IMG/VR virus record: IMGVR_UViG_3300009431_000003
Strand: one strand, 5' to 3'
Length of the DNA stretch: 64,000 bases
From: a virus
Below the pieces are notes generated by a model that saw nothing but the letters and a program-made list of their open reading frames with translations, was not told the origin of the DNA and searched no databases. Numbering within the stretch: position 1 is the stretch's first letter; every line of letters starts with the position of its first letter. Shown one piece after another: positions 3,532 through 57,939 of this stretch. The translations under genes and the position numbers were made by a program.

Positions 3532-3906
3532 TTATACTCTCCTTATTGTATTTGGGTCTCTTGCAGCACCCTCAAAGGGGGTCTCTTCTTTAGTGGTAGA
3601 AAGGGGGTATATTTTCTTTCCCGCAGTTCCCGGACTTGCCATACCCCCTCTCCACTTATTTTTACACTCCCGACAGTAGTATTGAAGTCGAGCATTTCCT
3701 GTTGGTCGCGCTGTAAAATTTCGCTTCTTACACTTGGGACAGTAGATAGAAAGCATTGTCTTTGTTGTATATGGCTTATCTTCTCTTTCAATTCCTCGCT
3801 CTAAAGGAAAGGCCTCCTTAACAGCATCAATTACATCATCTATAGCTGACCTGTCATCATAGAGATCAGTAATATTATCTGCTTTATGTGGTTTATCTTC
3901 GGACAT
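3532..3906 (-). CDS. hypothetical Zn-ribbon protein
   Basis: CPKC-x17-CREC, AAGGAG RBS. Confidence 0.7.
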   Translation of the reverse strand: MSEDKPHKADNITDLYDDRSAIDDVIDAVKEAFPLERGIEREDKPYTTKTMLSIYCPKCKKRNFTARPTGNARLQYYCRECKNKWRGGMASPGTAGKKIYPLSTTKEETPFEGAARDPNTIRRV

Positions 3907-5062: not shown

Positions 5063-5644
5063 CTAATAGCCTCCCTGTGGAGGATTTGAAGGGTCAGTAT
5101 CAATATCCCAAGGCAGTGGCCATATCCCTTTCTCGTATACTTCCGCGGTTCTATGTACTCCATTTTGCCAAGGAGTAGTTTTAGCAATTGTAGGCGCCAG
5201 GCTTTGTATAAATCCTTCCCAAGCACTCTTTGCTGATGAATAAGTGGACATAATATAAGTTAATGAGGCATATAATCTACCTAATTCCTCTTCTACAAAA
5301 ATTGGGGGAAGCTTCCAGCGGGTAATCATATTAGCCAGGTCCTCAAGCTCTTCCGCAATACAAGCAAACGCTCTTTGTGCAGAGTCTGGAAAAGTAGGGT
5401 CTGCGGCAGCAGCACTAAAATGAAGTACTGCCACATTAATTTCTGTAACCATGTCTGTATAATCTTCGTCTGATCGTTCTGTATATTTTTCTATCCAAGG
5501 AGCTATTTCGTCAGAAAAAACAGTTAGTTGCTCAACTAAAAGGTCCAACTTCGCCTGATAGTCCACCTCTTCAATAACCTTAACAGCTGTTTGCTCGAAA
5601 GCTTCCTTGCCTTCTCCTCTGGCTCTATCATATAAATAGGACAT
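5063..5644 (-). CDS. hypothetical helical protein
   Basis: GGAGG RBS, packed. Confidence 0.7.
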   Translation of the reverse strand: MSYLYDRARGEGKEAFEQTAVKVIEEVDYQAKLDLLVEQLTVFSDEIAPWIEKYTERSDEDYTDMVTEINVAVLHFSAAAADPTFPDSAQRAFACIAEELEDLANMITRWKLPPIFVEEELGRLYASLTYIMSTYSSAKSAWEGFIQSLAPTIAKTTPWQNGVHRTAEVYEKGIWPLPWDIDTDPSNPPQGGY

Positions 5645-6241
5645 TTATACCTCCTTTGGGACATCCACCCTAAAATCCAGAATGATGTCTTGATCTGCCG
5701 GAGCGGTTTGCCATTCTTCCGCAAAGACTGTAAGCGCCTTCGGGAACGTACTGGGTAACGCTAATGAGAGAAACAAACCCCCATAAAAATGATTCTCAAT
5801 AGTAGGTATAGGTACAAAAAACTCAAACACATAAGTACTCAATGGAGCAATATCAATAGAAGGAGCAACAGGGATCTCCCCATACCCAAAGGCCCCCACA
5901 GGTAACCTATTTGCACTTCTATTTCCAGAAGTTACATACCAGGGCGCCTTCCCTTGATACGCAGCATAATCCATACCAGGCCAAAAAGTAACTATCTGAG
6001 TCTCTTGATTATTTACAATTGTAAGAGAGTAGATAAGGCCTCGCATATCCGGAGGAACAGAAGTCCCAGGGTATGAAGGAATTATTTTAGAGATATCAGC
6101 CTCCTCACGATGCTTCTTATAATTAAACCGAGCAACGGCGGAGCTTCCGGCCTTCCGCCCATAATAATCAAATGTCTTTCTGAGATTACCTATCAGAGTA
6201 CCAAACCAAGTAATCTGCCCAAGGTTAGTTTTATTTGACAC
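5645..6241 (-). CDS. hypothetical protein (possible virion protein)
   Basis: packed, beta-rich, late-type strand. Confidence 0.7.
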   Translation of the reverse strand: MSNKTNLGQITWFGTLIGNLRKTFDYYGRKAGSSAVARFNYKKHREEADISKIIPSYPGTSVPPDMRGLIYSLTIVNNQETQIVTFWPGMDYAAYQGKAPWYVTSGNRSANRLPVGAFGYGEIPVAPSIDIAPLSTYVFEFFVPIPTIENHFYGGLFLSLALPSTFPKALTVFAEEWQTAPADQDIILDFRVDVPKEV

Positions 6242-9250: not shown

Positions 9251-9836
9251 AAAGATAAAAGGAATACAGGTACATACAGCTTTAGCGTACTTTGTTCTAC
9301 TGCCTACCCTTTTCTTTGTAACTATGCAGGAAAGTACCAAAGAATATAAAATCTGTTGGGACTTTATAGATATGGACACTATTGGCAGACACTGGAACGA
9401 CAGGCAACAAGAGATCGACCGTCTTACTCCAGTGATTCAAAAAACACATAAACACACAGACCCTAAATACCTTGTAGAGCTAATCCCAATTGTAGTTGAT
9501 TGGTCCTGGAACAGAAATATTGATGTACTATGGGTATCTGCTATTATCTCTGTCGAAACTAATTGGATCCGACAAGAAAGATATGGTATGGGTGGTGGCG
9601 GGCCGATGCAGGTAAATCATACCTGCCACGCTGAAAGGTTTGGAGTAAAAGACATCAGCGAGTGGTGGAAAAACCTGAACCTCAACCTTGAAGCCGGTAC
9701 CTGGGTACTACAACAATGTCATGGAAGCGCAGCTTGTTATAACGGGCATCCTGACTTGGAACTCCGGGCAGAATATGTTACAAATGTAAATAAGCGCTTT
9801 AAACGGATCAGTAGGGCATGGAAGGAAAACCCATGA
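9243..9836 (+). CDS. lytic transglycosylase (SLT-like) with N-terminal TM helix
   Basis: AIISVETNW (catalytic E), GPMQV, NLEAGTWVL, ACYNG, EYVTNV. Confidence 0.8.
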   Translation: MLKKIKGIQVHTALAYFVLLPTLFFVTMQESTKEYKICWDFIDMDTIGRHWNDRQQEIDRLTPVIQKTHKHTDPKYLVELIPIVVDWSWNRNIDVLWVSAIISVETNWIRQERYGMGGGGPMQVNHTCHAERFGVKDISEWWKNLNLNLEAGTWVLQQCHGSAACYNGHPDLELRAEYVTNVNKRFKRISRAWKENP

Positions 9837-17365: not shown

Positions 17366-20300
17366 CTATTTTTTATGACAAAAAAATATATAATCTTTCA
17401 TCAGGCCATATTTCTTTACATCATTAGGACGGAAAATATCAGAAGTTTTCAATACTTGTACAACAAAACCGACAGACTCTAAACGATCAACAATATCTAA
17501 ACCATAAGATCTGACATGCTCTGGATTAGCAAAATACTCGGCTGACTTCTTAAAACTTATACCCTCAACAGTTACTTCCTCTAAAATCGGAACCATAATA
17601 ACTGCCCAACTACCGATTTTAAGTACCCGATGTAATTCTCTCATAGCTTGTATATCATCATTAATGTGCTCCAACAAATGAACAGAAATAATAGCATCGA
17701 AGGAATTAAGGTCTTTAGGAATTGAAGTTATATCCACCCTTCTTAATTCTCCAGGGACCACATTAGAAGTAATATACTCAAGCTTAGAAAAAGAACTAAG
17801 TGCTTTCTTAATTCCTGCATTCGGGGAAAAATGCAAAACTTTGTATTTATTTTTAAAAAGTTTAGTTTTCCTTTTTAAAAATAAATACAACATACGATGG
17901 CGCTCTAAGGAGCCGCACTTGGGGCATTGAGCATCCTTCCTATTCACAGAACCAAAAGAACTAAAAGAACCCGTAAATGAGCATACCGGACAGTTCTTAT
18001 TGTCCTTACTTTCTTGCTCTGATATTTTGGGTTCCCAAATGTAAGTAGGGGTGTGGGCATAAGGACCTATAGCAGAATATTCCCATTCTTTTAAAAACTG
18101 ATCTATTTCTTTTTTATGTTTTACAGTATGACATTCACAGACAATAATGGGCTGTGAAGCTTTAATAATTTTTCTTGCCCCTTTAAGAGCAGCAAGTTCA
18201 TGCCCTTCTATATCAAGCTTAATAATTGAAACACTATCTTGCTTCACAAGAGAATCTAGCCGAAGATACCCCACCCCAAAAGTACCAACAGTAGAAAGCG
18301 TTTTGGTTCCTCCTACATTATTCGGATCGATATCATCAATTCCTCGTATTGGGGTATGTTTAGTTGATAAGCCCGCTGCTGCACAAATCACGCTGAATGT
18401 CTTGCTGAATAAATTATTAGTCTTAAGGTTATGATGAAGAATACTCGCCACCCCAGGAACTGCTTCAATAGAGATAACTTTATCTGAAAAGCATTCATTA
18501 AGAAAAAAGACTGCATGATTACCTATATTTCCTCCTACATCCAAATACGTGCCTTTTTTATTATAGCTCTTTAGCTTTTCAAGCAAATCCAGTTCATAAA
18601 ACTTGTTACTTGAACTAAGTCTTTGGTACAAAATATCTGACTCTGTTGCACAAAATATTTTATAAGTATGCTCTTTATACTTACAAACTGCACCAAGGCT
18701 AAAATTTACACCGCCCACAATATCCTCACTTTCAAATACACAATTCTCTTCATTTTCTATATAATTCTCTTCCCGAACAAACAATTCGTTTCCTGTCCCT
18801 GTATTTAACTGCGATTGTGTGGTCAGATGCCGGATAAAAGAACGTGCAGGGGCATAAAAATAATAATTTCCATTCATCATCCTATCAGCTATCTGAGGAA
18901 ATACTCCAGAACTTAAATACGGTTTATTATTCCATCTGGAACTAGCCACAGGAAATATCCTATGATCCAACAGTTTTGGTAATCGAGTAGCTGGGGCAAG
19001 CCACCCTTGCCCATCCATCCAATAATGTCGAACCACTACCTCATCACTAATCACCACTTCTTCCGCCAACTTCCGCCTCCAAGGATTAGTTCGAAAGCGT
19101 ACGTCACGAAACATACTCAAAGCCACTGCTTTTTTGTCGTGAGAAACTTTTTGCCATAAATTAAGCGCCTTCTCAAATATTCTATCACATAATTGAACAT
19201 CGTCTTGAATAACAGAAAGATACTTTGCTCCAGAATTTTTGAAAGACCTTAAAATTGCATCATGTATTCTCCAAAAGCCTGGTCGCCCATTTCGGGCAGA
19301 CAATTTACGATAGGACACAAACGAATATTTATTTACCAAATTAATTACCTCAGGGTATGGAAGCATCGAACAGTCATCAATAACCTCTATTTGCAAAGAG
19401 CACCCCCTTCCTTGCTCACGTATAATTGACCTAAGAGCTTTCTCTGCAAGCTCTGGACGATTATATGTAGTCAGATATACTTTTATGCTAGGCTGGTTAA
19501 TCTTGGTCTGGGGCGTCTTAGTCTCTATTATTGTGGAGTCATTCCATAATTGATGAAAGTCTATACTCTCGTAAACTTGTTCTGGGGTAATAGCTCTCAT
19601 ACAAGAAGCTTTATCGCAACCGATTTTACCTTTTGCTCCATAACACGGGAACCTCTTACAGCCTCCACCAGTACTCTGTATACAAAGAATTCTGCCGTTT
19701 GCAGGACTACACTTAGACCATAAAGTAGAACCAAATAATGCTACACCAGGAACCCCAACAGCATCAGCAACATGCATAAGGCCAGTATCATTACCTATAG
19801 CAAAATCACACATAGATAAAGCATCTGCTGTCTGATCCAGTGTTAATTTCCCTGCTGTATTTATACCTCGGTTTCCTAAAGTACGGCAAAGCCTATCACC
19901 ATACGCAAACTCTTTCTTGTCTCCAAAATAAATAAAGCGAACATCATGCTCTTGCAAAATTATTTTAGTTAGCTTTATCATATACTCTATCGGCCATAAT
20001 TTATGTGACCAGCTAGGATGACAACCATTATAAACAGCTATAGTACGCTTATCTCTCTTAACTATATTATTTGCATTTCTCGTCTTTATTGTTGAAGGGT
20101 ACTTAACAGTCCCTGGAATAATATCTAAATATGCCTGAGTTTCCGTTATTCCTAAAGCTTTCCAGTTTACCATAGGCTGCATAATCTGAGTAACATTATG
20201 CTTAGGTAAATTTTTTGGACTAAAACACCAAAGGGCAATTACCCGAGAAACATCTTGAGCCAATTTTGTTGTAGGAGATAGCTCTTTGACAGGCCACTTT

Positions 20301-22339
20301 GATATTGACTTAATTGCCGGTATTCTTGGATCATTATATTTTATATAAATTATTGGATTATTTAGATTCTGAATAAAAGGAGTTGCTTGAATAAAATTCC
20401 CGATACCATTATTAAAAAATACAGCATCTGAACTCAGTACCTTAACATCTTTATAGTTATACTTATAAAACCTACTAAACCGTTTGGAAATATCCCTTAG
20501 AGCTTTGGTAGGTTGATATGTTTTTGTAAGTTGTCCTGAATGCATACGATACTTACAAAATACCTGATCTACTAAAGCAAAAGTATACCCATTTAAAGAT
20601 AACTTACACCACAGATCAAAATCCTGTGCCTCTTGATTTGGTTGATCACTGTAATAGCCACCCACACGTACTACCGCATCTTTTCTAAAACATACAGTAG
20701 AGTGCCCAATACACCATCCCTGCTCCCACATAAACTTAGACTGATCTACTTTAAAAGAGGTACGGCGCACGTTGCCATACCCAACCGTCGAATTACTCTT
20801 ACTATCTATATAATCCATTTGACCAGACAACACTGATACTTCTTTATGCTTAAGCAAATACTCAACTTGAAATCTTAAACGATCAGGGACCATAACATCA
20901 TCAGAGTCTAAAACAGCGATACACTTACTATTACAGCCCATTAGAGCACTATTTCTAGCAGCAACAATCCCCTCATGCTTTAACCAAATAATCTTTACCC
21001 AAGAAAGTCTCTCATATTTTTTTAAAACCTCTATCGTCCCTGGATCAGTCGAACCATCATCAGCAACAACTAACTGTTTAATAACTCCTTTTTGTTTTTC
21101 TATAGAAGCTATAGCCTCTTCTAAAAAGCGTGACTTTGTATTATACACCACCATTAAAACAGCTACTTCATAGCTTTTTTGTGTTTTCGGTTTTGTCTTG
21201 AACCTATTAAGTACTTTTTTCTTAGGGAGCATACTTTCTTTACGTCGCTGTGTTTTTCTTTTTATTGCAGCAGGTATTCCTGATTTCTGTTTAGTATTTA
21301 CTTTTAAGCTTTTTGCTTCCCCAATCACATGAACAAATCTTTTAGTCATCGCAGCCACAGAATGCTCCTTATCCGCAAAAGTAAATGCCTGTTCCGCAAG
21401 GGTTTTTCTTACATAAGGGTTACGTAAGTCCCTCATTACATTACCAAACTCTTTCAAAGAATCAAAATACTTTATAGCGTCGTTTGGTATTTCCAAGTGA
21501 TAGACACTTGGGCCGCATACTTTCCTGGCCAGAACAGGCACCCCAGACCGCATAGCCTCAACAATAGTCTGTGGCCAGCCTTCCCAGTCAGAATAAACAA
21601 TATGAACATCCATTTTAGCAAAAAGAGCTGCCCGGTCCTCTACATCTACAATTAATTCTATGCCAGGTGCTCCTTTTATCTCTTTTTTTAGTGCCTTAAA
21701 ATAACCTGCAGCATATGGAGCAAAGCCGCCAGCAACAAGTAGACGATCCCCAGATTTCCTAGCCCGCTTAAAAGCCCTTACAATTTCCACAGCTTTCTTA
21801 CGTGGCTCGAAGTTTCCAAAATACCCAATAGTAAGATTTCTGCCAGTACCTATTTTCGGAGAACAACGGAGATCTGTAGATGAGAGAATCGAGACACAAT
21901 TTGTCTTTCTATATTTTTTCTCATATGCAGCAACTATACCTTTTCCAACTCCGATTACAGTATGAATTTTATCTTTACCGTAATCAATTGCCTTGTATCC
22001 CCAAGCATCCATTGTATGAGCAACATAAATATAGCTTACGCCCAGATGAGGACTAAGAACACTTGGAATATTCGCTGGGCCGGCAAACACTACAATATCC
22101 GCACGAAAGGATCGGACAAAGGAAATAAGGGCACTATCCTTTGTTCCTAAATATTTAACAGGAGAATTTCCCGCCCGCCGCTGGTATACTTTAAGCGCTT
22201 CATTATAGACTTTGCCGCGCCACCCAACATAAGCTTTCCTGGCAGAATCTCCAAGAGAATTGCCTAGAGAAATTAAGTGACCGAAAACCCCGCCCCAATG
22301 AAGCCCGGGATATACAAAAACAATTCTTGGTTTATTCAT
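17366..22339 (-). CDS. multi-domain glycosyltransferase/methyltransferase: GT4 + GT2 + GT9 + GT2-like + FkbM MTase + Zn-ribbon/class I SAM MTase (ORF track start 22375)
   Basis: GT4 EGWPQTIVEAMRSGVPV; GT2 DDGSTD/LDSDD; GT9 GIGNFI..GNDTGLMHVADAVGVP; TTYNRP..IDDCS; FkbM LDVGGNIGNH..KLDIEGHE; CPKCGSLERHR..HLLEHI. Confidence 0.9.
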   Translation of the reverse strand: MNKPRIVFVYPGLHWGGVFGHLISLGNSLGDSARKAYVGWRGKVYNEALKVYQRRAGNSPVKYLGTKDSALISFVRSFRADIVVFAGPANIPSVLSPHLGVSYIYVAHTMDAWGYKAIDYGKDKIHTVIGVGKGIVAAYEKKYRKTNCVSILSSTDLRCSPKIGTGRNLTIGYFGNFEPRKKAVEIVRAFKRARKSGDRLLVAGGFAPYAAGYFKALKKEIKGAPGIELIVDVEDRAALFAKMDVHIVYSDWEGWPQTIVEAMRSGVPVLARKVCGPSVYHLEIPNDAIKYFDSLKEFGNVMRDLRNPYVRKTLAEQAFTFADKEHSVAAMTKRFVHVIGEAKSLKVNTKQKSGIPAAIKRKTQRRKESMLPKKKVLNRFKTKPKTQKSYEVAVLMVVYNTKSRFLEEAIASIEKQKGVIKQLVVADDGSTDPGTIEVLKKYERLSWVKIIWLKHEGIVAARNSALMGCNSKCIAVLDSDDVMVPDRLRFQVEYLLKHKEVSVLSGQMDYIDSKSNSTVGYGNVRRTSFKVDQSKFMWEQGWCIGHSTVCFRKDAVVRVGGYYSDQPNQEAQDFDLWCKLSLNGYTFALVDQVFCKYRMHSGQLTKTYQPTKALRDISKRFSRFYKYNYKDVKVLSSDAVFFNNGIGNFIQATPFIQNLNNPIIYIKYNDPRIPAIKSISKWPVKELSPTTKLAQDVSRVIALWCFSPKNLPKHNVTQIMQPMVNWKALGITETQAYLDIIPGTVKYPSTIKTRNANNIVKRDKRTIAVYNGCHPSWSHKLWPIEYMIKLTKIILQEHDVRFIYFGDKKEFAYGDRLCRTLGNRGINTAGKLTLDQTADALSMCDFAIGNDTGLMHVADAVGVPGVALFGSTLWSKCSPANGRILCIQSTGGGCKRFPCYGAKGKIGCDKASCMRAITPEQVYESIDFHQLWNDSTIIETKTPQTKINQPSIKVYLTTYNRPELAEKALRSIIREQGRGCSLQIEVIDDCSMLPYPEVINLVNKYSFVSYRKLSARNGRPGFWRIHDAILRSFKNSGAKYLSVIQDDVQLCDRIFEKALNLWQKVSHDKKAVALSMFRDVRFRTNPWRRKLAEEVVISDEVVVRHYWMDGQGWLAPATRLPKLLDHRIFPVASSRWNNKPYLSSGVFPQIADRMMNGNYYFYAPARSFIRHLTTQSQLNTGTGNELFVREENYIENEENCVFESEDIVGGVNFSLGAVCKYKEHTYKIFCATESDILYQRLSSSNKFYELDLLEKLKSYNKKGTYLDVGGNIGNHAVFFLNECFSDKVISIEAVPGVASILHHNLKTNNLFSKTFSVICAAAGLSTKHTPIRGIDDIDPNNVGGTKTLSTVGTFGVGYLRLDSLVKQDSVSIIKLDIEGHELAALKGARKIIKASQPIIVCECHTVKHKKEIDQFLKEWEYSAIGPYAHTPTYIWEPKISEQESKDNKNCPVCSFTGSFSSFGSVNRKDAQCPKCGSLERHRMLYLFLKRKTKLFKNKYKVLHFSPNAGIKKALSSFSKLEYITSNVVPGELRRVDITSIPKDLNSFDAIISVHLLEHINDDIQAMRELHRVLKIGSWAVIMVPILEEVTVEGISFKKSAEYFANPEHVRSYGLDIVDRLESVGFVVQVLKTSDIFRPNDVKKYGLMKDYIFFCHKK

Positions 22340-22386
22340 AAATATTGTACTATCACCATAAGCTACTAATTCCAAGGAGGACTATC

Positions 22387-54794: not shown

Positions 54795-55001
54795 ATGGGA
54801 AAGCTTTTATTGTGGGCATGGGGAGCATATGCCTTGATTTGGGTTGCAGTATTTTTGAGCGCTTATTTTGATTTCTTCTCATTTATGGATGATTGGAGAG
54901 GAAGACGAGTAGCTCATCATTTGCCGCCATATTTCTCATGGAAGTATCTTATCTGGTCCGCTCCTGTCCTTTTAGCCGGCCTTGCAAGTATATCTTCTTA
55001 A
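54795..55001 (+). CDS. small membrane protein
   Basis: AAGGAGG RBS, two hydrophobic helices. Confidence 0.65.
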   Translation: MGKLLLWAWGAYALIWVAVFLSAYFDFFSFMDDWRGRRVAHHLPPYFSWKYLIWSAPVLLAGLASISS

Positions 55002-55057
55002 TCGTCTGTCTCAAAAATTTGCAAAGTGAGATAGCTTATGATACCTTTAAAAACAAG

Positions 55058-55096
55058 TTATGTGAAAATAATGAGTATTTTCACATAAGAGGAGTG
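55058..55096 (+). promoter_or_regulatory. 13-bp palindrome overlapping a CATAAGAG-type motif upstream of the RNA island
   Basis: TTATGTGAAAATA-ATGAG-TATTTTCACATAA; CATAAGAGGAGTG at 55084. Confidence 0.5.
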
Positions 55097-55152
55097 ATCA
55101 AGAACTTTCCTTTTAGGAGGAAAGGCATGACCTTCTTGATCTACTTGTCACA

Positions 55153-55330
55153 AGTTTAAGTTGGAAAGTTGGCTTAGAGGCAGCCATCTTTTAAAGAGTG
55201 AATCGCCTCGATCTCAATCATCGTGACCGATGGATACTTTCTGTAATGTGTCAGGTCCTTGACTTAGGAAAGTATCGGGATCGCCAAGGACAGGTGGATT
55301 CTTTGGCGTAGTAGCACACCAACTTAAACT
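55153..55330 (+). ncRNA. structured RNA mimicking 23S rRNA H43/H44 (uL11-binding GTPase-associated centre) with ~105-nt insert
   Basis: perfect 12-bp closing helix 55153-64/55319-30; GTTGGCTTAGAGGCAGCCATC matches E. coli 23S 1059-1079 at 20/21 (from memory); TTTAAAGAGT...GCGTAGTAGCACA matches H44. Confidence 0.75.
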
Positions 55331-55471
55331 ATTTTAAGAGGAGAAACTTATGTGTTTTAAAATGGATCAGTGCAGAAGAGAAATGGAGGAATCTCTCGCA
55401 CTACACGACCATGATGATTGGATTCGTTATGGAAAGTTATCTCCTCAGCAGAAACATGCAAAGACAGTTTT

Positions 55472-55808
55472 GGGCATGGTTTTGGATTCGACAGAGGAGC
55501 TTGAGAGCGACTCCAGCAAGCCAGGGAGCATCCGGCCCTGTAAAAAGATGCACATTTTTAATTGCCGAACCGCAATTAGCTAACGCTGCGTAGAGCAGCG
55601 CGTTGTACCGGCTGACTCCGATACGTCGGCTACAGCGTTACATATCGGATAGTCTTGATGGCTGATCGTATCAAGGGAATTCCAGATCACCAACTCTCTG
55701 AGTATCCTGTCCATGGGAGACAATGAAGAGTATAAAACATGGACTAAGCTTGTAGACGGACCGTAAACACTTTTCTGGACTGGGGTTCGACTCCCCACAT
55801 GTCCACCA
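55472..55808 (+). ncRNA. ssrA: tmRNA; tag peptide (A)AEPQLANAA* at 55564-55593
   Basis: acceptor GGGCATG/CATGTCC-ACCA with G3.U70; GGATTCGAC; T-arm GGGGTTCGACTCCCC; TAATT before the GCC resume codon. Confidence 0.92.
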
Positions 55809-56129: not shown

Positions 56130-56903
56130 ATGAAAGAGAATCAGTTACATGTCCTCCTTGCTGTTGAAGGAGACTTGCAGGGACAAGCAAAAAGAGTAAT
56201 AAAGGAAGCGTATGATACCTTTAAGTCCAAGCTGCATCTGTTCGATGGGCTGGATAAGGTTCTTCATATGTTTGATGAAAAGCGGCAACAAGAAGAATCT
56301 GCCGGCAGGCAACACAGTGACGTTGCCACAACAGTCGAGGATAAGTTAAGATATATCAAAGGAGCAGTCGGCAACTATTGGGACGCTGTCCTCCAAAAGG
56401 AAAACGCAAATCAGGATGCCCAGGCTGATTTGGTAATCGACGGAAAGACGATCGCCCCTGGGTTACCCGCCACATTCCTTCTTGGAATGGAAAGCAAGGT
56501 AAAAGCCTTGAGAGAAGTTTTCGAGGCTATTCCGACCAGGGATCCGAATATCTCTTGGATCGCCGCAGACGACATCGGTCCTGGTGTGTTCAAGTCTGTC
56601 GTGCCGATTGATAGAACCAAGACTGAGACTATCGTTGAGCCGGTTGTGTTGTATCACGCAACCAAGGACCACCCCGCACAGGTCAAAGAGGGATCAAAGG
56701 TAGTAACCATCGGCAAAACTTCCGAAACAAAGTATACCTCTCGCTGGACTCCTCTTCAGAAGAGCAATGCTTTGGCTCGGGTAGATAAATTAATCCGTTC
56801 TTTGAAGAAGGCGCGGCAAAAAGCCAACCAAACAGAGATTAAAGATGCTCATATAGCCAATGACATCTTTAAATACCTTCTGGAAGGCAAATTGCCGGGA
56901 TAA
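56130..56903 (+). CDS. conserved uncharacterised coiled-coil protein adjacent to a tRNA-like ncRNA
   Basis: AAGGAG RBS; LHVLLAVE, LPATFLLGME, VLYHATKDHPAQV, RVDKLIRSLKKARQKAN. Confidence 0.85.
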   Translation: MKENQLHVLLAVEGDLQGQAKRVIKEAYDTFKSKLHLFDGLDKVLHMFDEKRQQEESAGRQHSDVATTVEDKLRYIKGAVGNYWDAVLQKENANQDAQADLVIDGKTIAPGLPATFLLGMESKVKALREVFEAIPTRDPNISWIAADDIGPGVFKSVVPIDRTKTETIVEPVVLYHATKDHPAQVKEGSKVVTIGKTSETKYTSRWTPLQKSNALARVDKLIRSLKKARQKANQTEIKDAHIANDIFKYLLEGKLPG

Positions 56904-57198: not shown

Positions 57199-57276
57199 GA
57201 TTTTATGGCTCAATTGGATAGAGCTGCGGACTATAAAATCCGTGAGTTACGGGTTCAACTCCCGTTAAGATCACCA
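57199..57276 (+). tRNA. tRNA with non-canonical 8-nt anticodon loop (CTATAAAA); identity unassigned
   Basis: acceptor GATTTTA/TAAGATC-ACCA; D GCTC/GAGC; AC stem GCGGA/TCCGT; T ACGGG-TTCAACT-CCCGT. Confidence 0.75.
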
Positions 57277-57863: not shown

Positions 57864-57939
57864 GGGGGATTAGCTCAGTTGGAAGAGCGTGGCGCTTGCA
57901 TCGCCGAGGTCATCGGTTCGATCCCGATATCTTCCACCA
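57864..57939 (+). tRNA. trnA: tRNA-Ala(UGC)
   Basis: GGGGGAT/ATCTTCC-ACCA with G3.U70; anticodon loop CT TGC AT; T-loop TTCGATC. Confidence 0.95.

Follow-up and report, generated by a model that had tools for sequence, protein, structure and literature searches.

A family of phage RNAs resembling the GTPase-associated centre of 23S ribosomal RNA

Layout of the element and its likeness to 23S ribosomal RNA

The sequence analysed here (the window) is a 64,000-nucleotide stretch of uncultured phage DNA, IMG/VR record IMGVR_UViG_3300009431_000003. At positions 55153–55330 (+) it contains a non-coding RNA gene of 178 bases which adjoins transfer-messenger RNA (tmRNA) and transfer RNA (tRNA) genes. 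This element reproduces a domain of 23S ribosomal RNA (rRNA), the GTPase-associated centre (GAC), where uL11 binds and the translational GTPases make contact. The GAC consists of the top of helix 42 (H42), helix 43 (H43) and helix 44 (H44) and corresponds to the 58-nucleotide (nt) uL11/thiostrepton domain (1051–1108 in the E. coli numbering, which is used throughout). The element is closed by a helix of 12 base pairs (bp) equivalent to the top of H42; its 5' strand (55153–55164 (+), G55164 being G1055) and its 3' strand (55319–55330 (+), C55319 being C1104) are perfectly complementary. The 5' strand is followed by A1056–A1058 and by G1059–U1090, the latter at 55168–55199 (+). A1056 together with the H43 equivalent (1057–1081) and its 1067 loop occupies 55165–55190 (+), with A1067 at 55176 and G1070 at 55179. 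It is followed by the 1082–1086 turn at 55191–55195 (+) with the lone pair U55191-A55195, and by the lower 5' strand of H44 (G1087, A1088, G1089, U1090) at 55196–55199 (+). Here the rRNA-like sequence is interrupted by a Y-shaped insertion domain of 102 nt (55200–55301 (+), closing pair G55200-C55301), from which a UUUG linker (55302–55305 (+)), specific to the phage family described below and not found in rRNA, leads to G1091. The upper hairpin of H44 (G1091–C1100) with a GUAGUA loop, together with A1101, C1102 and A1103, is located at 55306–55318 (+), A1095 being 55310. A55316 (A1101) is placed opposite U55199 (U1090).

The complete element folds with −61.9 kcal/mol (z = −4.2), and no open reading frame (ORF) of 40 or more codons runs over it. 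The bases building the fold of the rRNA domain, namely U1060, A1088, G1071, C1072, A1077, the pairs G1059-C1079, G1091-C1100 and C1092-G1099, and 1082–1086, are all present in the window copy. A preliminary description of the window had reported the perfect 12-bp helix, both halves of H43/H44 and the equivalents of A1067 and A1095, and all of them are located where it had placed them. The helices which it had listed in a self-folding insert inside H44 were recovered on folding, the length of the insert being 102 nt plus UUUG.

The stretch 55168–55200 differs from Firmicute-type 23S 1059–1091 at 2 of 33 positions, and no such match was obtained in 100 shuffles of the window. As the rRNA reference we used a Paenibacillus 23S fragment (L147), a true rRNA piece in a phage record, against which identities were counted by hand: 31 of 35 positions are identical over 1056–1090 and 12 of 14 over 1091–1104, giving ~88% identity to the GAC over 1056–1104. 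The differences at 1058 and 1080 amount to one compensatory swap. The phage element has in common with the GAC the helices, the lone pair 1082-1086, the conserved bases of the fold core and the free position 1061. In contrast to the GAC, it lies outside rRNA, is encoded by a phage among tRNA genes and has a private closing helix whose sequence is arbitrary; it also differs in the domain of 25–260 nt with UUUG between 1090 and 1091, in A1101 instead of U, and in some relaxation of A1067, A1070 and A1095. In the rRNA type of H44, GAGU or GAAA is joined straight to GCGUAAUAGCUCAC, whereas here the 102-nt insert and the 4-nt linker come in between.

Both flanks of the element are phage sequence without the rest of domain II (lower H42, H41, H45). 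The large-subunit rRNA model gave no match in the 64-kb window at the gathering threshold, nor over 54900–55500 at E ≤ 10. The absence of other rRNA alongside, as originally reported, thus holds for the whole window, where the Rfam matches are confined to a tmRNA and two tRNAs.

The pair U1090-A1101 had been considered compensatory, and this view has to be modified. U1090 is already present in L147 (GAGU...GCUCAC), the one Firmicute 23S fragment read, so the change is one-sided. The novelty is A1101, which turns a U·U opposition into a U-A pair and is found in 96–98% of the family, whereas both true 23S pieces at hand (L147 and L087) carry U at 1101. Copies in gammaproteobacterial phages have G1089, U1090 and A1101, unlike the 23S piece of gammaproteobacterial type (L087), which reads GAAA...GCUCAC. 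Hence the family has been passed on within phages and not copied anew from each host.

Extent, covariation and inserts of the phage family

IMG/VR was scanned with the 5' motif, with the 3' motif carrying the GUAGUA loop and with the 3' motif carrying a GUAAYA loop, and these scans were combined with a covariance model. The 3' motif with GUAGUA was found at 29 loci, 26 of which have the 5' half upstream. The 5' motif gave at least 119 matches; among the matches listed, at least 100 are distinct split copies and one is an uninterrupted sequence of rRNA type; at least 119 matches were also obtained with the GUAAYA form of the 3' motif. The covariance model (R1) was built on an alignment (A1) of 29 diverse members with short inserts, in which the rRNA-derived pairs and the closing helix of the insert were annotated. 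The window copy, itself one of these 29 seeds, is matched by R1 with 116.8 bits (E 4e-38, model positions 1–171); no other match in the window is significant, the next one having 9 bits (E 0.18). Over the fetched loci R1 recognised at least 162 distinct full-length sequences, namely 160 split ones and the two true rRNA pieces L087 and L147. Members outside the seed, including those of cultured phages, score 83–101 bits.

Among the cultured phages, blastn located the 5' half also in Aeromonas phage 4_4572 (R1 83.5 bits). There the locus is unannotated and lies just 5' of a tRNA-Met gene; its architecture is the same, the insert measuring ~230 nt and the 3' half being identical. The other R1 matches are in Pseudomonas (putida) phage pf16 (KU873925 29406–29615, 101 bits, with tRNA-Asn on one side and tRNA-Pro on the other), Cronobacter phage GAP32 (85 bits) and Xanthomonas phage XacN1 (L146, AP018399 150348–150600, 89.5 bits). 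In XacN1 the element is located directly 3' of a gene annotated as 2'-5' RNA ligase, with no adjacent tRNA genes. It is single-copy in the complete genomes of these four phages. BLAST also indicates Pectobacterium phage CBB, Xanthomonas phages XaC1 and XbC2, Erwinia phage Kaldavass and Pseudomonas phages Milchi, Astolliot and UNO-G1W1. A covariance-model search of phage sequences, which had been suggested as a check at the outset, thus finds the motif widespread and present in four cultured phages. Two copies are carried by some viral contigs (L220, L259 and L084, where they stand in tandem at 5115–5370 and 5432–5716). Paenibacillus phage Pd_22F and several short "phage" records contain true 23S fragments and are not members of the family. 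The 42-kb viral contig L042, which has no flanking rRNA, contains at 3700–3784 (+) an uninterrupted GAC-like element without an insert and with a different lower H44 (R1 36 bits), followed by an apparent 5' end of a tRNA.

The 3' motif specific to the family was also sought in 185,579 species-representative genomes of bacteria and archaea, where it was found on only 69 contigs, ~37 of which match R1 strongly. These contigs belong mostly to metagenome-assembled genomes labelled with many phyla. Such rarity in cellular genomes, together with the kind of contigs concerned, shows that this is a phage gene and not a cellular one. Rfam 15 has no match over the element, either in the window (also at E ≤ 10) or in 18 related loci, where its only matches are tRNA, tmRNA, RNase P RNA and cow-rumen-4. 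Our literature searches returned no description of the family. A catalogue of ~10,000 unnamed candidates for viral structured RNAs (PMC10690425) makes no mention of 23S or L11 and reports no overlap with rRNA predictions, and it may hold the family unrecognised. Hence this is a very large phage RNA family, for which the databases and publications searched have no entry or description.

Covariation was analysed in 99 distinct sequences (alignment A2) over 25 pairs; 500 column shuffles and 3' partners slid by 1–3 columns served as controls. Standard pairs occupy 91.6% of the pair cells, compared with 68% in the column shuffles and 35–49% after sliding. Changes on both sides were observed in 21 of the 25 pairs, and none of the 500 shuffles reaches any of the five measures; the seed alignment A1 gives the same pattern. 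Covariation is seen in each of the 8 modelled H42 pairs, in each of the 5 closing pairs modelled for the insert and in the H43 pairs 1057-1081 and 1058-1080 (mutual information 0.44 and 1.47), and G1055-C1104 is replaced by A-U in 13 sequences. The covariation sits mostly at positions that are variable in rRNA too. The lone pair 1082-1086 covaries as well (UA 74, CG 44, AU 22) and is tracked by position 1056: in alignments A2, A3 and A4 G1056 goes with U1082-A1086 and A1056 with C1082-G1086. These three positions likely form a conserved base triple. The window copy holds a minority combination, A1056 with U-A. No coupling between the two loops (1067 with 1095 or 1096) was detected in the family. 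RNAalifold, run with no structure supplied, recovers H42, H43, the insert stem and the upper H44.

To guard against ascertainment, the conservation of each half was scored solely in sequences that had been selected through the other half. U1060, A1088, G1059, G1063, U1066, G1087, G1093 and A1098 are 100% conserved and U1094 is 99–100% conserved; G1071, C1072, A1077, G1089, U1090, G1091, C1092, G1099 and C1100 reach 97–99%. Those bases which we take to be the fold core of the GAC are, as far as checked, invariant or nearly so. The pair G1059-C1079, part of the uL11 site, is retained while neighbouring pairs covary. Position 1061 is free (U, A or G) and is likewise variable in rRNA (PMC6239185); 1096 and 1097 are also free and the least conserved of their loop. 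The exposed adenines are less constrained: A1067 is A in 86% and A1095 in 93% of members (non-A in 7%), and A1070 is replaced by G in 20%, the window copy included. In rRNA both A1070 and A1095 are invariant yet make no tertiary contacts (PMC6239185). A1101 is present in 96% in the other-half samples. When members are selected through their 5' half, the four linker positions are conserved at 93% (U), 96% (U), 90% (U) and 89% (G). Derived traits are thus common to all members: the insertion site itself, and the UUUG linker and A1101 family-wide at these percentages.

These data bear on the origin of the element. It might be a captured or contaminating fragment of host 23S without function, as its high rRNA identity would allow, and true scraps do occur in phage records (Pd_22F and several short ones). 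However, there is no flanking rRNA, the closing helix is private and covaries, the derived characters are common to at least 160 distinct sequences and the copies of gammaproteobacterial phages are unlike the host-type sequence. The fragment explanation is refuted by the family data and its probability is practically nil. The preliminary description had named a degenerate 23S fragment without compensatory changes as the finding that would speak against it, and the double changes in 21 of 25 pairs are the opposite of this. Its central claim of a stand-alone, non-coding mimic of H42(top)-H43-H44, and not a copied scrap, is borne out by the distinct sequences (at least 160), the covariation and the derived characters. 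An evolutionarily maintained RNA with a GAC-like secondary structure is well supported by the alignments.

In every member the insert stands between 1090 and 1091. Its length is 25–260 nt with a median of 128 (141 delimitable copies), and the first insert pair, directly after U1090, covaries (GC 83, AU 51, UA 21). Taken alone, the window insert folds into a Y shape (−34 kcal/mol, z = −2.4) with GAAUC/GAUUC at its base, followed by a G·U with a bulged G and by 3 pairs. This basal part defines a sub-class of 10 of the 141 members (N-AAUC, G·U beside the bulged G, three covarying pairs). No relatives of the window insert sequence were found by blastn of the fetched loci, by one IMG/VR viral scan or by one metagenome scan, so for its distal structure folding is the sole source. 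A GGUAAGG-containing motif resembling CACCCCGUAAAUGGUAAGGC is located near the 3' end of 35 of the 141 inserts (e.g. L001:3225–3250, and L038), and a second group has GUGCGAAAUG...AUGAUGUG in common; the inserts can be assigned to several conserved classes. In the smallest members (the L004 group), such as the ~95-nt copy L004:203–295, the insert is only a 25-nt hairpin, which makes the GAC core the conserved working part. Since H44 is unbroken on its 3' strand (1099–1102), its upper and lower parts can stay stacked with the insert branching off.

Genomic neighbourhood

The tmRNA gene is located at 55472–55808 (+), 142 nt 3' of the element; it is recognised by Rfam (132.5 bits) and by ARAGORN and has the tag peptide AEPQLANAA. 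Two tRNA genes follow at 57199–57276 (+) and 57864–57939 (+). The first of them has an 8-nt anticodon loop, CUAUAAAA, for which ARAGORN gives a four-base anticodon AUAA and no amino acid. Between the tmRNA and tRNA genes, inside the RNA island, lies a gene for a DUF7873 protein (56130–56903 (+), Pfam E 9e-65). Immediately 5' of the element there is a structured spacer (55058–55140 (+)) with an 11-bp hairpin ATGTGAAAATA/TATTTTCACAT, after which comes GATCAAGAA...TTCTTGATC around CTTTCC...GGAAAG.

Directly after the element stands an ORF of 77 codons (55350–55583 (+)) with AAGAGGAG, a strong Shine-Dalgarno sequence, 6 nt before its ATG. Such an arrangement raises the idea that the element is the cis-acting leader of this ORF, similar to an autoregulatory leader of a ribosomal protein (r-protein) gene. 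The ORF, however, enters the tmRNA gene (overlap 112 nt), has no PHROG match and is probably not a gene. Moreover, the usual downstream neighbour in the family is a tRNA gene and no ORF is conserved there, and the Rfam leader models do not match; a cis-acting role is highly improbable.

The association with tRNA genes is common to the family. Its loci contain 1165 tRNA/tmRNA genes, of which 1164 are on the strand of the element. For 72 of 198 distinct elements a tRNA gene lies within 20 nt of the model ends and for 119 within 1 kb; 59 have no tRNA gene on the fetched locus (a few kb each). One may suppose on these grounds that the element is a structural or processing module of the tRNA-array transcript, in which the GAC fold serves as a stable nuclease-resistant scaffold or as punctuation and has no ribosomal ligand. 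The 72 abutting copies and the high variability of the inserts agree with this. On the other hand, a scaffold does not require that ~30 bases identical to rRNA stay nearly invariant in phages infecting many phyla, or that G1059-C1079 is retained amid covarying neighbours, and the 59 elements without a tRNA gene are not accounted for. We consider this explanation quite improbable.

The same niche, phage tRNA clusters, is occupied by tmRNA, RNase P RNA, YrlA-like Y RNAs, GOLLD/ROOL and the stable RNAs of T4 and T5, and the processing is probably the same. Unlike the element, none of them copies an rRNA domain, and they have no relation to it in sequence or structure; the Rfam models GOLLD, ROOL, raiA and HEARO do not match the element, either in the window or in the 18 related loci. 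To these non-tRNA passengers of phage tRNA arrays the element would add a new class. A tmRNA gene near the element was seen in 9 further loci (L007, L010, L013, L061, L069, L118, L136, L159 and L220). On the 77-kb phage contig L002 the tRNA array contains a full RNase P RNA of bacterial type (9376–9703 (−), 264 bits), ~1.4 kb from the element.

Possible ligands and role of the RNA

According to PMC6239185, in a passage citing Blyn et al. 2000, the C-terminal domain of uL11 recognises the tertiary fold of this rRNA domain, and the domain folds autonomously. The phage family keeps the bases that build this fold, which makes host uL11 the most likely ligand. No phage-encoded uL11 RNA-binding domain (PF00298) was found in 10 complete element-bearing phage genomes, while the positive controls gave 14 of 14; any uL11 partner would therefore be encoded by the host. 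The binding of uL11, proposed already in the preliminary description, remains plausible from the sequences. We propose a stable stand-alone RNA which may act in trans: it would fold like the GAC, bind host uL11 and act as its mimic or decoy. We regard the chances for and against this proposal as evenly balanced.

The element would be transcribed together with the tmRNA/tRNA cluster of the phage, and the enzymes that excise the tRNAs would also free the RNA. In the presumed three-dimensional fold its two ends would meet under the private H42-like helix with H43 and H44 packed side by side. The variable domain would leave the 5' strand of H44 between 1090 and 1091 and return via UUUG, the 3' strand being unbroken. 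The binding of the C-terminal domain of host uL11 might then yield a small ribonucleoprotein off the ribosome, mimicking the uL11 stalk base or acting as its decoy; the capture of free or exchangeable uL11 would be the most economical effect. A change of uL11 occupancy on ribosomes might in turn alter RelA activation and the action of RF1, which is speculative. If phages of many bacterial phyla make this off-ribosome copy in abundance, an infected cell could then resemble a relC (uL11-deficient) mutant: either uL11 is drawn off or the uL11-RNA surface is presented in trans, RelA-dependent (p)ppGpp synthesis is blocked and RF1 termination is altered. This relC-like state is doubtful, and the effect on RelA/ppGpp suggested earlier is accordingly kept as speculation. 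Amber-suppressor tRNAs (anticodon CUA) were observed near the element in 11 of 138 tRNA-bearing loci and UCA tRNAs in 2; these counts are without a baseline and have no bearing on the RF1 idea.

Several observations weigh against the proposed explanation. A scan for a sigma-70 promoter and a terminator gave nothing convincing on the + strand upstream of the element. RNAalifold prefers another lower H44, in which U and G of the linker pair with A1103 and C1102 and A1101 is bulged. The rRNA-like lower H44 is broken by 2 sequences and the RNAalifold alternative by ~10, of which 7 have a linker A opposite C1102; the only C-G and A-U variants of the pair G1087-C1102 are those in the two copies on L084. 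These exceptions mildly favour the rRNA-like lower H44 over linker pairing. The insert interrupts the 5' strand of H44 in every member and would have to leave the uL11 face free. Free uL11 is scarce, which makes the stoichiometry of a sponge uncertain. The conservation of A1067 (86%) and A1095 (93%) seems to exceed what binding of the uL11 C-terminal domain needs and hints at a further ligand. The relaxed pattern of A1070 and A1095 agrees with a constraint directed mainly at the fold and uL11, with some extra pressure on the exposed adenines remaining. Finally, we infer everything that goes beyond the secondary structure.

This residual pressure keeps alive two other explanations. According to the first, the RNA is a decoy target soaking up attackers of the ribosomal GAC and thus sparing host ribosomes. 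The attacker might be a GAC-directed toxin or abortive-infection effector (a Tre23-like ADP-ribosyltransferase, a nuclease or a methyltransferase) or a thiopeptide antibiotic. The exposed A1067 and A1095 are dispensable for the fold and are still conserved at 86% and 93%. The element is located among phage tRNA genes, and the logic is that of phage tRNAs substituting for, or out-competing, tRNAs that host anticodon nucleases have cleaved. Defence nucleases cutting rRNA exist, and a bacterial toxin ADP-ribosylates H44 at 1095–1098 (PMC8661411). However, 1096 and 1097 among these target positions are the least conserved in the loop, and no anti-phage system aimed at the GAC was found in the literature searched, Retron-Kva2 and RAZR cutting rRNA without GAC specificity. 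A stoichiometric sponge would also face competition from tens of thousands of ribosomes. Such a decoy for attackers is rather unlikely.

According to the second explanation, the RNA, with or without uL11, traps a GTPase (EF-G, IF2, RF3, BipA or LepA), the elbow of an A/T-state tRNA or another factor of the stalk base, and in this way tunes translation. The factor-facing adenines are conserved, and isolated GAC oligonucleotides reportedly bind EF-G in vitro, an observation ascribed to Munishkin and Wool in 1997. The relaxation of A1070 (G in 20%) and A1095 (non-A in 7%) argues in the opposite direction. A sarcin-ricin-like partner motif was not recognised in the inserts, which are not conserved. 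Trapping of a translation factor is unlikely, and the binding of host uL11 is the reading we prefer.

The suggestion that the element offers a site for uL10(L12)4 has to be abandoned. Its H42 consists of 12 plain Watson-Crick pairs with no bulge or kink-turn, the sequence of this helix is free in the family and the lower H42 is absent. Iben and Draper are said to have found in 2008 that L10 needs the lower H42 with a kink-turn and a bulge. Since no uL10(L12)4 site is seen, the relief of r-protein (rplJ) autoregulation, also proposed earlier, is unsupported; the L10 leader RF00557 has no match at E ≤ 10.

The r-protein leaders (L10 leader RF00557, L1, S15, L20) are nevertheless similar to the element in that the site of an r-protein is rebuilt outside the ribosome. 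They are cis-acting 5' untranslated regions of cellular r-protein operons and usually loose structural mimics, whereas the element is a near-exact rRNA copy located in phage tRNA arrays, without an r-protein gene in the vicinity (none was found near the window copy) and without an Rfam match. The proposed logic is also that of 6S RNA and CsrB/RsmZ, abundant RNAs which imitate the nucleic-acid ligand of a protein and titrate this protein; their ligands and folds are different, and for the element such a function is a proposal.

We know of no other free-standing copy of an rRNA domain encoded by a virus, and in this sense the element is of a new kind. Binding of uL11 or another GAC ligand, if it occurs, would make the RNA a new phage route for manipulating or protecting translation. 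In the relC-like case the virus would take over translation control by means of an RNA, with a domain taken from the ribosome. The family would also supply natural variants, in the hundreds, of an RNA tertiary fold that is among the best studied, including a natural three-way-junction H44. The idea is directly testable, as four cultured phages of laboratory hosts (pf16, GAP32, XacN1 and 4_4572) carry the element.

The window as a whole is of phage origin, with ~43% GC and an endolysin gene. Its helicase shares ~30% identity with helicases of Bacillus and Listeria phages, and a 10-kb part of the window has no megablast match among cultured phages. At 17366–22375 (−) it contains an ORF for a multidomain protein of 1669 amino acids with glycosyltransferase domains (GT2, GT9 and GT1/4) as well as FkbM and other methyltransferase domains.

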